In this document: in pieces, positions 14,384 to 17,707 of the stretch
How the letters are laid out: each line of letters starts with the position of its first letter
Numbering within the stretch: the first letter of the stretch is position 1
Virus genome (UHGV): UHGV-0190812
Direction: 5' to 3' (one strand)
Length of the DNA stretch: 18,962 nucleotides
Source: a virus
Translations under genes and position numbers: made by a program
The notes under the pieces: model-generated
Database searches by the model: none
What the model was told of the DNA's origin: nothing
The model's input: the letters and a program-made list of their open reading frames with translations, nothing else

Positions 14384-14748
14384 ATACTTACTGCATCACA
14401 CTACCCTGGCCGCCGAGCAATAACCGCTATTACCGCCATAATCGCGGGCGCACGCACGTCAGTGCAGAGGGGCAGGCATACCGCGATAACGTCGCCCGAA
14501 TCATTAAAAACGCAATGCTGGATATCGGCCTGGCTATGCCTGTGAAAATCCGCATTGAGTGCCACATGCCGGATCGCCGTCGCCGTGACCTGGATAATCT
14601 GCAAAAAGCCGCTTTTGACGCACTCACTAAAGCAGGTTTCTGGCTGGATGATGCTCAGGTCGTTGATTACCGCGTTGTGAAGATGCCCGTTACCAAAGGT
14701 GGGAAGCTGGAGCTGACCATCACCGAACTGGGAATGAATGATGTTTGA
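14380..14748 (+). CDS. rusA: RusA Holliday-junction resolvase
   Basis: 122-aa translation is near-identical to E. coli DLP12 RusA as recalled ([91 protein letters not shown]...). Confidence 0.9.
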
Positions 14749-14878
14749 GTCTTATATGGCAGAACGTCTTCGCCACCGCAGGATGCGCCTGCGCTTATAT
14801 CGTTTCCCCGGTTCTGTTTTGACCGATTACCGGATACTGAAGAATTACGCCAAAACACTGAAAGGAGCTGCCGCATGA
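14741..14878 (+). CDS. ylcG: YlcG-like small protein
   Basis: 45-aa ORF below the track cut-off ([45 protein letters not shown]). Overlaps the rusA stop and the Q start (ATGA). Matches DLP12 YlcG as recalled. Confidence 0.5.
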
Positions 14879-15564
14879 ATACCCAATATTTACAGTATGT
14901 CCGCGAGCAACTCATTGTGGCTACTGCTGATTTGAGCGGAGCAACGAAAGGCCAGCTTGAAGCCTGGCTGGAGCATGCACAATTTGATACTGGTACATAT
15001 AAACGAAAGAAGCCGCGCATTCTGGATGAGGTAACGGGCAAGATGATTACGCTGGATAATCCGCCGATTTCCGGTAAGCAGTCGTACGCAAAAGGTTCAT
15101 CCATTGCACTGGTCAGCCAGGTTGAGTTCTCAACATCTTCATGGCGCCGCGCGGTTCTGTCTCTCGAAGAACATCAGAAAGCGTGGTTGCTGTGGAGTTA
15201 CAGTGAAAACATCAGCTTTGAATACCAGGTGGCGATCACCCAGTGGGCGTGGTCTGAATTCAGGGGGTATCTCGGCGCGAAGAGGGTGGCAGGCAAGACC
15301 ATGGAGCGCCTGAAGAAGCTGATATGGCTGGCAGCGCAGGATGTCAAAGCAGGGTTGGTCGGGAAAGATGCCTACGAATACCAGAAGCTGGCGGAACTGG
15401 TTGGCGTGGCGAAATCCACCTGGACAGAGACATACCTGCCTCACTGGTTGGCAATGCGTAGCTGCTTTATGCGACTCGATAGCGGTGCGCTTATCTCAGT
15501 AACGCGATCACGTTCACAACAAAAGGCGACAAGTTCGCACGTAAGTCTTGCAAAACCGAACTGA
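14875..15564 (+). CDS. late-gene antiterminator Q (QuuD-like)
   Basis: 229-aa ORF directly after rusA-ylcG, upstream of a candidate late promoter and the lysis cassette. Assignment by synteny and length; no motif independently verified. Confidence 0.6.
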   Translation: MNTQYLQYVREQLIVATADLSGATKGQLEAWLEHAQFDTGTYKRKKPRILDEVTGKMITLDNPPISGKQSYAKGSSIALVSQVEFSTSSWRRAVLSLEEHQKAWLLWSYSENISFEYQVAITQWAWSEFRGYLGAKRVAGKTMERLKKLIWLAAQDVKAGLVGKDAYEYQKLAELVGVAKSTWTETYLPHWLAMRSCFMRLDSGALISVTRSRSQQKATSSHVSLAKPN

Positions 15565-15693
15565 AACGCTTATATTTCATGTAAATCTGATATCGTCGCC
15601 ATAGCTTTGTTGGTCGACAAAGAATTAACAGCCTCGCCATCGTGCGGGGCTTTTACTTTACATGCTGTGAACACAAAAAAAGTAACTTTTATG

Positions 15694-15722
15694 TTGATGT
15701 AGAAGCACTTCATGCGTAATAT
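15694..15722 (+). promoter_or_regulatory. candidate late promoter pR'
   Basis: TTGATG (15694-15699), 17-nt spacer, TAATAT (15717-15722), about 130 bp downstream of the Q stop. Confidence 0.4.
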
Positions 15723-16367
15723 TTCGCGCCATCATGTTTACGAACAGATATCAAATTGAAATTAGCGCGAAAGACTTGTCATTCTGATCTACATTCGTTA
15801 GGTTGGATGAGCAGACAGTACTTATCGGACTGCTAAGGAAGCGAAATGCAAAACATTCAAGCAAAAGTTACTTATTTCATGGCCTTTGTCGTAGTACCCG
15901 TCTGGGGTGTATGGATGTGTTCGCTCGTTAAATAATCGATCAATCAGTTTCTTCTTAAAATTCCAAGGTTTTCTATTCCTTATCCAGTTACAATGTTGCC
16001 GAATCTAACGATCTGCGCAGACGTTGGGTAACTTTAACTGGCATAAGGTGCACTTTATCGACGAAACTCCAAACACTGCTTCCGGAACAAAAGTCTGGGT
16101 TCTCAACTTTATGGTTGGGATAACTATGTTAGTTGTAGGCTTTTTCGGTACACGCTTGATTAACCAAGTTGATGATATTGATAAGTCTCTCCAGACGACA
16201 CGAGAAGTACAGGCGGCCCAAACAGAAATTATTAAAGGTCTTCAGCGCGACCTTGATAAAAAAGGGCAAGACATTGAAAAACTTAAAAACGATGTTGATC
16301 GCCTGAAAGAAATCAACGCTGAATTGAAGGCGAAGCTGAAAGTATCCAGCACGCTAGATACCTCGAA

Positions 16368-16395
16368 GGTCGCCGATGGCGGCCTTTTTTTGTTT
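16368..16395 (+). terminator. intrinsic terminator (first of tandem pair, tR'-like)
   Basis: GGTCGCC-GAT-GGCGGCC stem (one G-U pair) followed by TTTTTTTGTTT. Confidence 0.55.
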
Positions 16396-16422
16396 CTAAG
16401 CACTTTGCGTTACCCTCACATT

Positions 16423-16448
16423 GCCAGCCTGTCGCTGGCTTTTTTATT
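16423..16448 (+). terminator. intrinsic terminator (second of tandem pair)
   Basis: GCCAGC-CTGTC-GCTGGC perfect 6-bp stem followed by TTTTTTATT. Confidence 0.65.
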
Positions 16449-16550
16449 CCAGGCTTGTGGGGATCTTCAACTCCGTGCTTTGTCGTTAAATTACCCCGTG
16501 AGTCTGTTCCCTATCATTTAGAGTCCCGATCATCCGTCGGCGGCAAAATC

Positions 16551-16868
16551 ATGGCTATTCATATGCACGAAAAAGAGAGCATTGCCGGGATGTCCTGGCT
16601 CGTTCTGCTGATCTTCGCGTGCTGGGGCGGGCTTGTCCGTTACCTGATTGATGTGAAGCAGAGCAAAGCAACATGGAGCTGGATTAATGCTCTGGCTCAG
16701 ATAGTGGTATCGGGTTTTACCGGTGTTATTGGTGGCCTGATAAGTATCGAAAGCGGATTTAGCATTTACATGATTCTCGCCACAGCAGGGATCAGCGGTG
16801 CAATGGGTTCAGTTGCGCTGACTTACTTCTGGGAACGACTGACAGGGGTGAAAAATGCAAAACCTTAA
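16551..16868 (+). CDS. putative holin (about 105 aa, multiple TM segments)
   Basis: Directly upstream of and overlapping the endolysin gene. Hydrophobic segments WLVLLIFACWGGLV, IVVSGFTGVIGGLISI, IYMILATAGISGAMGSVALTYF. Several in-frame Met codons near the start (M1, M5, M14), compatible with holin/antiholin dual starts. Not similar to lambda S as I recall it. Confidence 0.6.
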   Translation: MAIHMHEKESIAGMSWLVLLIFACWGGLVRYLIDVKQSKATWSWINALAQIVVSGFTGVIGGLISIESGFSIYMILATAGISGAMGSVALTYFWERLTGVKNAKP

Positions 16869-17331
16869 TCCTCAGCGTAAAGCCTTCCTCGATATGCTGG
16901 CGTGGTCAGAAGGAACTGATAACGGATGGCAGAAGACCAGAAATCATGGTTATGACGTTATCGTTGGTGGCGAACTGCTTACTGATTACTCCGATCATCC
17001 ACGTAAGCTGGTTACGCTTAACCCGAAACTGAAATCCACCGCCGCCGGGCGTTATCAACTGCTGTCGAAATGGTGGGACGCCTACCGTAAACAGCTTGGA
17101 CTGAAAGATTTCTCCCCGAAAAGCCAGGATGCGGTGGCGTTACAGCAGATTAAAGAACGCGGCGCGCTGCCGCTGATTGATCGGGGTGATATTCGTCAGG
17201 CTATTGATCGTTGCAGCAATATTTGGGCTTCATTGCCCGGTGCTGGCTACGGTCAGTATGAACACAAGATCGATAGTCTGATTGCCAAATTCAAAGAAGC
17301 TGGCGGGGTGGTTAATGAAACTTCGCTATAA
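16855..17331 (+). CDS. R: endolysin R (lambda-type lytic transglycosylase)
   Basis: 158-aa translation near-identical to lambda R as recalled (NQRKAFLDMLAWSEGTDNG.QKTRNHGYDVIVGGEL.TDYSDHPRKLVTLNPKLKST.AGRYQLLS.WWDAYRKQLGLKDFSPKSQDAVALQQIKERGALP...). Confidence 0.95.
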   Translation: MQNLNPQRKAFLDMLAWSEGTDNGWQKTRNHGYDVIVGGELLTDYSDHPRKLVTLNPKLKSTAAGRYQLLSKWWDAYRKQLGLKDFSPKSQDAVALQQIKERGALPLIDRGDIRQAIDRCSNIWASLPGAGYGQYEHKIDSLIAKFKEAGGVVNETSL

Positions 17332-17707
17332 GCTGGTTATTTCTGCTTTCCTCCTGACTTTATTCGGTTCTCTCGTCTGGTCAGCTAACCACTACCACAG
17401 CAAATACCAGCGCGAAAAGAAACGTGCTGATGAGGCTGTACAAAATGCCGAATCGGCAACCGCTATTACCAATAACGTCCTGCAATCACTGCAAATCGTC
17501 AATACAGTTCTGGAGGCTAACCAGCATGCAAAACAGCAGATCGCACTGGAGTCACAGAGAACCCAGGCTGATATCAAAGTGGCTGTTGCGGATGATGATT
17601 GTGCTGTACGCCCTGTGCCTGCTGCCGCTGCTGACCGGTTGCGAAAGTTCGCGGACAGTTTACGTGCCAGTTCCGGCTATACCGTTACCGGCGAGTCTGA
17701 CCGCTGA
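17315..17707 (+). CDS. Rz: Rz-like i-spanin
   Basis: ATG at 17315 with GGGGTGG Shine-Dalgarno, overlapping the R stop. N-terminal TM segment (LVISAFLLTLFGSLVWSANHY, compare lambda Rz ...CLSWAVNHY) followed by a charged helical periplasmic domain. Confidence 0.6.
   Translation: MKLRYKLVISAFLLTLFGSLVWSANHYHSKYQREKKRADEAVQNAESATAITNNVLQSLQIVNTVLEANQHAKQQIALESQRTQADIKVAVADDDCAVRPVPAAAADRLRKFADSLRASSGYTVTGESDR

Follow-up and report, generated by a model that had tools for sequence, protein, structure and literature searches.

A mobile cassette of two small membrane-protein genes between antiterminator Q and holin, with a larger reading frame that enters its terminator before any stop codon

The spacer between the antiterminator gene Q and the holin gene of UHGV virus genome UHGV-0190812 is almost certainly composed of three layers: the late-promoter unit of Q, an inserted moron that encodes two small membrane proteins, and resident DNA next to the holin. 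The whole stretch of DNA that was analysed (the window, 18,962 nucleotides) covers the late-control region of a lambdoid prophage. All coordinates below use the numbering of this stretch, in which Q ends at 15564 and the holin ATG begins at 16551. The larger of the two moron genes runs in frame into the moron's own intrinsic terminator before it encounters a stop codon. We propose that transcripts ending at this terminator would be non-stop mRNAs, and that read-through by a Q-modified polymerase would supply the stop. For the complete picture, in which the layered spacer is joined to this mode of operation, we judge the chances to be even.

The boundaries of the insert and of the resident DNA that follows it are:

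~15690 to 16397, plus strand: moron of about 710 bp from promoter to terminator, delimited by presence and absence, low G+C content and homologous copies.
16405 to 16550, plus strand: resident holin-proximal leader, including terminator T2, recognized from insert-less relatives and from identity to E. coli genomes.
16423 to 16445, plus strand: terminator T2 (stem 16423-16439), GCCAGC...GCTGGC followed by T6, found in the terminator scan.

The initial annotation of this DNA reported nearly 1 kb between Q and the holin, placed it among the sites where morons insert, and suggested that the spacer be compared among related phages. The spacer measures 986 nt. In lambda, Q and S are about 680 nt apart, so a length of 1 kb is not extreme in itself. 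Comparison with relatives does detect an insertion. Insert-less phages that share this type of Q and this holin have a spacer of 321 nt, consisting of the late promoter pR', a terminator tR', about 90 nt and then T2. The insertion point thus lies between tR' and T2, and T2 is resident DNA because these insert-less relatives have it. The two terminators previously described as tandem are accordingly both present and of separate origin, the first (T1) belonging to the cassette and the second to the resident DNA. In E. coli the insert is rare. Positions ~15655-16400 are carried by 3 of 5,426 complete genomes, and the last ~145 nt before the holin are found in more than 800 genomes with 82-86% identity. 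The G+C fraction is 0.385-0.435 in the insert and 0.48-0.56 in its flanks.

Searches with the protein and with the locus recovered 51 homologous loci representing 38 distinct sequences. They reside in prophages of Klebsiella, Salmonella, Enterobacter, Raoultella, Kosakonia and Serratia and in IMG/VR viral contigs. Similarity among the 51 loci begins at the -35 element of a promoter (P1, described below) and stops at the T-run of T1. At every locus inspected for context, an antiterminator gene precedes the cassette and lysis genes follow it, in some cases after an intervening DNA methyltransferase gene. The adjoining antiterminators belong to PF06323, PF06530/DUF1133, PF03589 and one unannotated family of 214-223 amino acids, and the holins downstream belong to at least four families.

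On this comparative evidence, the central part of the spacer qualifies as a moron. It is present or absent between genes that are otherwise adjacent, has its own predicted promoter and terminator, and deviates in base composition. The term itself reportedly comes from work by Juhala and Hendrix on HK97 and HK022, where it is said to denote a promoter-gene-terminator unit between genes that are adjacent in relatives. Like other lambdoid morons, including the Stx and tRNA insertions after Q, the cassette has a polymorphic presence, its own promoter and terminator, low G+C content and unrelated backbones. It differs in consisting of two very small membrane-protein genes of a previously undescribed family, and in having its 3' boundary inside the larger open reading frame (ORF), such that the mobile unit always lacks that stop codon. 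With the large protein as query, tblastn gave zero matches in 50,697 cultured phage genomes, and blastn of the spacer against the same genomes matched only its IsrJ-like part (see below) and the holin leader. A literature search for a described moron like this cassette returned nothing usable. Nothing within the cassette was matched by an Rfam scan of 14500-17500 (E <= 1), which returned the isrJ family alone.

The gene that lacks its stop codon and the terminator that interrupts it are:

16057 to 16392, plus strand: conserved part of the large ORF, about 112 codons; the formal ORF continues to TAG at 16519-16521.
16365 to 16391, plus strand: cassette terminator T1, in frame inside the ORF, with a 10-pair stem (16365-16387) and T7 (16385-16391).

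The ORF at 16024-16521 had been noted to read in frame through both terminators, and we confirm this. The arrangement is a property of the family: all 38 distinct variants of the main clade carry a GC-rich hairpin and T5-T7 in frame with no prior stop. These hairpins have predicted folding free energies of -13 to -17 kcal/mol and lie 177-189 nt after the codons for the motif EVQA. Their stems differ by compensatory changes between clades (GGTCGCC/GGCGGCC, AGCCACC/GGTGGCT and GGCTGCC/GGCAGCT). When the terminator helices are combined with a covarying stem-loop located ahead of the large ORF, 95% of alignment cells are paired, compared with at most 47% for slid partners, and nine pairs show two-sided changes.

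Translation appears to reach the hairpin because the segment IPLTLN, which immediately precedes it, is kept invariant through varied synonymous codons, with three or four synonymous codons used at each of four invariant positions. The residues encoded by the hairpin itself vary (VADGG, AAPRGG, PPSGG or AASGQ). Past the T-run, homology ceases in both DNA and protein, and the tails have unrelated sequences. In the 38 variants, the distance from the T-run to the beginning of the first in-frame stop ranges from 8 to 166 nt, and its mean of 64 nt equals the random expectation of 64 nt. Since homology stops at the T-run, the terminator marks the end of the mobile unit, which never includes the stop codon of the large gene. 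We rejected transcriptional slippage or programmed frameshifting at the T-run as a conserved feature; the frame of the T-run varies by clade (177, 181 or 183 nt after EVQA), and no out-of-frame stop is conserved.

One divergent locus, the outgroup L062, has a different layout. Its TAA stop comes directly after the coiled-coil region, and the terminator follows 13 nt later, which identifies the hairpin as a gene-end terminator. Judging from these alignments, the stop-less state is old and stable and is not obligatory for the protein core.

The large ORF has a ratio of nonsynonymous to synonymous polymorphism (pN/pS) of 0.36 in frame and of 1.0 and 1.4 in the other frames, which rules out the possibility that it is non-coding. 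Its product has an N-terminal membrane helix, a coiled coil of about 70 residues and a short C-terminal motif. AlphaFold models it as a single helix spanning residues 7-106, with a predicted local distance difference test score (pLDDT) of 76. A Pfam scan of the protein gave sub-threshold coiled-coil matches and no family above the cut-off. Matches in PHROGs, PADLOC and PDB (the Rz-like spanin phrog_739, E 7e-4; Csx27, E 0.005; Abraxas, E 0.003) were set aside as compositional, being sub-threshold or reflecting generic coiled coils. An Rz-type inner-membrane spanin was also rejected: the phrog_739 match is weak, the prophage has its own Rz/Rz1 downstream of the endolysin, and no lipoprotein ORF is embedded in the gene. 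Among 1.84 billion representative proteins there are about 16 clusters of true relatives, together with remote proteins of 90-110 amino acids that combine a membrane anchor with a coiled coil. One of these remote relatives (P0032) comes from marine metagenome contigs of ~1 kb, which are too short to give gene context. The large protein is probably a small inner-membrane factor that acts late in infection.

The beginning of this gene is also unusual. The relevant element is:

16044 to 16059, plus strand: Shine-Dalgarno sequence TAAGGT (16044-16049), a gap of 7 nt and the Ile codon ATC (16057-16059), a probable near-cognate start.

In the 34 variants whose match begins there, AAGG is conserved and is followed after 7-8 nt by ATA or ATC. 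For this Ile codon, most variants have ATA and the E. coli clade has ATC, and the frame between the Shine-Dalgarno sequence and the codon is not preserved among variants. The GTG at 16048, at which PGAP starts the protein, is not maintained in relatives, where it is out of frame or reads GTA. The N-terminal motif xASGxKVW is under purifying selection, and 7 of 28 distinct upstream variants lack any in-frame ATG, GTG or TTG in the stretch that separates it from the preceding stop. A near-cognate AUA or AUC start is probably the sole reading that fits all members of the family. In E. coli, infC and pcnB use AUU starts. The cassette gene resembles these two in having a conserved codon other than AUG, GUG or UUG at the optimal distance from a conserved Shine-Dalgarno sequence. 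It differs in the codon itself, AUA or, for the E. coli clade, AUC, which is deduced from comparative sequence alone. If used, such a start would imply low expression that is sensitive to initiation factor IF3.

These observations bear on the protein that is recorded in databases. The PGAP model of the large ORF (WP_032172870.1) runs from GTG 16048 to TAG 16521 and has 157 amino acids, of which the last ~43-45 are unconserved. In view of the alignments, this annotation is probably wrong at both ends.

The first layer of the spacer, directly after Q, contains three elements:

15548 to 15576, plus strand: predicted late promoter pR', TTGCAA-17-TATATT, matching 9 of 12 consensus positions, with its -35 element inside the last Q codons.
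15580 to 15653, plus strand: IsrJ-family leader RNA of ~75 nt, a pR' transcript of the 6S/StxS type (Rfam RF01393, isrJ).
15630 to 15660, plus strand: intrinsic terminator tR', with a stem at 15630-15651 (8 pairs, 6 of them GC) followed by TTTTACTTT.

The initial annotation located the late promoter at 15694 and did not list this promoter or its terminator, which adjoin Q and match isrJ. The leader scores 64.9 bits against RF01393 (gathering score 37; E 5.6e-11) in a full-length match to positions 1-75, and blastn aligns ~90 nt of the unit to Gifsy-1 and Enterobacter phages with 84-92% identity. pR' is the sole promoter-like site flagged in a scan of 14800-17000 at a threshold of 9/12. The promoter, together with the ~22 bases at the start of the transcript (CATGTAAATCTGATAT), is conserved in Gifsy-1 isrJ, Klebsiella, E. 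coli and the insert-less relatives. The unit accompanies the 82-type Q whether it is followed by three tRNAs (L002), by the moron (the window and L006) or by nothing (L060 and L061). Because it adjoins Q, matches isrJ and stays with the 82-type Q whatever lies downstream, we assign 15548-15660 as pR', its leader and tR'. This is probably the late unit of the 82-type Q, at which Q would bind and promote read-through. A literature search gave no usable description of the pR' sequence of phage 82.

Lambda 6S, StxS and IsrK form a recognized class of short constitutive transcripts that originate from Q-regulated promoters (PMC7547250), and IsrJ can be placed beside IsrK in this group (PMC4825925). 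The window unit resembles these RNAs in its order of promoter, ~75-nt RNA and terminator straight after Q. The arrangement in Gifsy-1 is different. There the order is Q-isrK-orf45-anrP-isrJ, whereas the isrJ unit of the window abuts Q.

The Gifsy-1 isrJ unit (L059, 2456-2606), located downstream of anrP, also retains a -35 element with flanks equal to the last Q codons of the window (..TTGCAAAAC..; window 15520-15670). This remnant suggests that in Gifsy-1 Q was separated from the late unit that it first had, either by insertion of isrK-orf45-anrP or by duplication of the end of Q.

The cassette has a separate promoter:

15694 to 15733, plus strand: promoter P1, with -35 TTGATG (15694-15699), 17 nt and -10 TAATAT (15717-15722), consisting of invariant columns in alignment A5.

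Alignment A5 comprises 23 sequences and is the basis for all columns that are called invariant here. The P1 consensus in A5 is TTGAT(A/G), 16-17 nt, TAnnAT, 3 nt and an invariant GCGCC (15726-15730), and transcription probably starts near A15731. Although the initial annotation was right that a promoter is present at 15694-15722, and it is conserved, calling it strong was an overstatement. The window copy matches 8 of 12 consensus positions, below the scan threshold of 9/12; copies in relatives reach 11/12 (L024) and 10/12 (L003). With its GC-rich block after the -10 element and, in most copies, a spacer of 16 nt, P1 is reminiscent of rrnB P1 and its discriminator. This similarity hints at stringent or growth-rate control of P1.

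The layers may operate together in the following way. In the lysogen, the pR' unit would yield only its short RNA. Transcripts from P1, or from leaky pR', would stop at T1, and T2 would protect the lysis genes as a second barrier. The 29-residue peptide encoded by the first cassette gene would be made normally from these RNAs. Ribosomes on the large ORF would instead reach the 3' end of a non-stop mRNA, and its product would be tagged by transfer-messenger RNA (tmRNA) and degraded. Upon induction, Q would load onto RNA polymerase at pR' and make it resistant to terminators. The modified polymerase would pass tR', T1 and T2 and place a downstream stop codon, here TAG 16519-16521, behind the ORF. 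Untagged large protein with an arbitrary tail could then accumulate just before lysis. In this scheme, we infer both the role of tmRNA and the gating by Q.

There is precedent for the central step. An intrinsic terminator within an ORF generates non-stop mRNA that leads to SsrA tagging and degradation in vivo, and arfA is naturally regulated in this manner (PMC3989581). As in arfA, a conserved RNA hairpin in the cassette would truncate the transcript before an in-frame stop, and the C-terminus encoded by read-through is hydrophobic and not conserved. There are three differences. The cassette product is a membrane-anchored coiled coil that has no ArfA family match in Pfam; truncation would be caused by a canonical intrinsic terminator, whereas arfA mainly uses RNase III; and the cassette gene has an antiterminator upstream that could bring back the stop codon. 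Since homology to ArfA is absent, the claim is that the cassette gene works like arfA, not that it belongs to the same family. A broader statement can be made more tentatively, and we lean slightly against it: that these genes are a phage family with a stop codon outside the gene, whose completion is switched by Q antitermination or by exhaustion of tmRNA, and that they form a second natural non-stop class after arfA, with an AUA/AUC start.

Several points weigh against this interpretation. Each step of expression (promoter activity, termination, tagging, read-through and use of the start) is deduced from sequence. P1 in the window reaches only 8/12 of the consensus. The window copy has an in-frame TTG at 16024 as well as GTG 16048, and an AUC start is therefore not compulsory here. 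A weak start would limit lytic expression too, which is awkward for the rationale that the protein is made only late. T1 might also be suppressed by a ribosome that follows the polymerase closely. Finally, the layout of L062 indicates that the protein core can work when it ends at an ordinary stop, and the absence of a stop in the main clade might be a derived state that is tolerated.

The strongest of the alternatives is one that we still regard as unlikely. The cassette may be an ordinary moron whose stop codon was lost or unneeded. T1 would be leaky or suppressed by ribosomes, the protein would work with a junk tail, and tmRNA would have no regulatory role. Tail lengths do match the neutral expectation, tails are wholly different even between close relatives, and the stop right after the coiled coil in L062 implies that the core fold does not need the C-terminal end. 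Such tolerance does not readily account for the terminator, which is canonical and strong (an 8-10 bp GC stem, UUCG-type loops and T5-T7) and is kept by compensation in 38 variants. Synonymous sites are near saturation, yet no main-clade stop has been gained in the ~20 codons before the hairpin. The hydrophobic tails rich in Phe and Leu that a T-run encodes are generally destabilizing, and strong terminators inside ORFs are known to give non-stop mRNA (PMC3989581).

Two further explanations are both improbable in our estimation. The large protein could be a sensor that behaves more literally like ArfA. Truncated, untagged protein would accumulate when trans-translation is saturated or blocked, as by mRNA cleavage in stress or by another phage, and would act at the membrane as an effector of abortive infection or as a lysis trigger. 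The arfA-type layout, with an ORF cut by a conserved RNA element before any stop, suits this function, as does a promoter of its own that would permit transcription independent of Q. The weak AUA/AUC start and the membrane-anchored coiled coil would also be appropriate for a dose-sensitive and potentially toxic effector. However, the cassette is always found in the late operon, with Q on one side and the lysis genes on the other, and this placement points to a role in the lytic cycle. No defence family is matched significantly (the best PADLOC hit, at E 0.005, involves coiled-coil regions).

The second is a translation-coupled attenuator, to which we assign an equally low probability. A ribosome close behind the polymerase would block formation of the T1 hairpin, so that transcription from P1 would continue into the downstream gene only if the ORF is translated. 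The ORF spans the whole hairpin in every variant, and coupling could be tuned by the strength of the start, by the hairpin that sequesters TTG 16024 and by the Shine-Dalgarno sequence. In several loci the next gene encodes an N6/N4 methyltransferase, which might be useful in a lysogen. However, the downstream gene is not conserved, and in E. coli, Klebsiella and Enterobacter it is a holin, for which read-through in the lysogen would be harmful. A second terminator follows T1 in the window, and a near-cognate start would make tight coupling rare. We also considered that polyadenylation of the terminated RNA might create a UAA stop, an outcome that would depend on the frame and on the exact 3' end.

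The model of the initial annotation, in which 15694-15722 is a Q-dependent late promoter with a pR'-tR' leader of ~650 nt that extends to 16395/16448, fits the position between Q and the holin and the presence of promoter-like hexamers, but deserves almost no credence: a complete unit matching isrJ already exists at 15548-15660, two ORFs under purifying selection lie between the 15694 promoter and T1, and this promoter travels with the cassette beside four unrelated Q families and is for that reason not a Q-specific qut promoter.

The interpretation that we favour, with non-stop transcripts completed by Q read-through, concerns the second cassette gene. The first is encoded by a much shorter ORF:

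15834 to 15935, plus strand: Shine-Dalgarno sequence TAAGGA (15834-15839) and a 29-codon ORF (15846-15935), conserved in relatives.

The product in the window is MQNIQAKVTYFMAFVVVPVWGVWMCSLVK. This ORF, with its AAGGA sequence and hydrophobic peptide of 29 residues, had been picked out from the window alone, and conservation and pN/pS now indicate that it is coding. It could be located in 22 aligned relatives, every one of which has 29 codons and a stop at an identical position; in the outgroup L062 it has 30 codons. Its start is ATG or TTG and is preceded by an invariant CTAAGGA. pN/pS is 0.31 in frame and 0.97 and 1.73 in the other two frames, and the peptide consensus is M-N-x-I-Q-P-x-V-V-Y-x-M-T-F-x-x-I-P-x-W-G-x-W-L-x-S-L-I-K. 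By these comparative measures, the ORF is a real gene for a hydrophobic membrane peptide with a single predicted helix. A type I toxin-antitoxin function for the peptide was considered and found little encouragement. There is no promoter-like site on the minus strand of 14800-17000, no conserved minus-strand -10 element in A5 and no Rfam match, which together amount to a weak negative.

Two other conserved elements lie between the small and large ORFs:

15989 to 15994, plus strand: invariant TAnAAT (here TACAAT) in A5, accompanied by an invariant AAG at 15965-15967.
16007 to 16025, plus strand: covarying stem-loop ahead of the large ORF that sequesters TTG 16024.

The TAnAAT element may be an internal promoter, P2, or part of an RNA element; it lacks a good -35 sequence. 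Six of the seven pairs in the stem-loop have two-sided changes among 23 sequences. The stem alone has 96% of its cells paired, and the whole structure has at most 47% with slid partners. Upstream of the small ORF in the outgroup L062 (2650-2740), P1 is replaced by direct repeats (TGGTTCTAGA four times and AACGATACTAA twice), which may be operator-like.

The genes on either side of the spacer are typical of a lambdoid late region:

14875 to 15564, plus strand: antiterminator Q of the phage-82 type, 229 amino acids (PF06323, E 9.9e-92; phrog_304).
16551 to 16868, plus strand: holin of the LydA type, superfamily III (PF16083, E 1.7e-22; phrog_785).

At identical E. coli loci, PGAP labels the first of these 'bacteriophage antitermination protein Q'. 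The holin is followed by a lambda-R-like endolysin and then by Rz/Rz1. The window has no tRNA genes. Six terminator-like sites occur within 14800-17000, compared with 2.2 +/- 1.6 in shuffled sequences.

The holin gene has two in-frame ATG codons (16551 and 16563), four codons apart in the sequence ATG GCT ATT CAT ATG. PGAP starts the holin at the position equivalent to 16563, and the first start is TTG in relatives L060 and L061. This double start looks like the dual-start motif of holin/antiholin pairs, such as lambda S105/S107.

In Serratia, a short promoter-terminator unit that belongs to the resident gene at the Q position precedes the cassette. This gene follows ninG and encodes a protein of 214-223 amino acids with no recorded Pfam match (L003, 2788-3432; L010, 2796-3467; L015, 2797-3468; L062, 1862-2512). 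The protein may represent an undescribed antiterminator family. Loci from Serratia and Kosakonia (L003, L010, L012, L013, L015 and L062) carry an N6/N4 DNA methyltransferase gene between the cassette terminator and the holin as a second cargo.

The cassette combines elements of known kinds, a moron and a gene regulated through non-stop mRNA, with two unusual conserved features, the lack of a stop before the terminator and the AUA/AUC start. Whatever the mechanism, the late unit of the 82-type Q is relocated and tied to the Salmonella small RNA IsrJ. A previously undescribed pair of small membrane proteins is also defined, found only in prophages of Enterobacterales, and annotations of the large gene such as WP_032172870.1 probably need correction at both ends. 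If non-stop transcripts are indeed produced, they would represent a new coupling of protein output to antitermination, in which one ORF would yield protein that is degraded when made from ordinary transcripts and stable only when made from Q-modified ones. The cassette would then be a natural example beside arfA that links phage late control to ribosome rescue, and its stop codon gated by a terminator, together with its near-cognate start, would constitute a compact and portable regulatory device.

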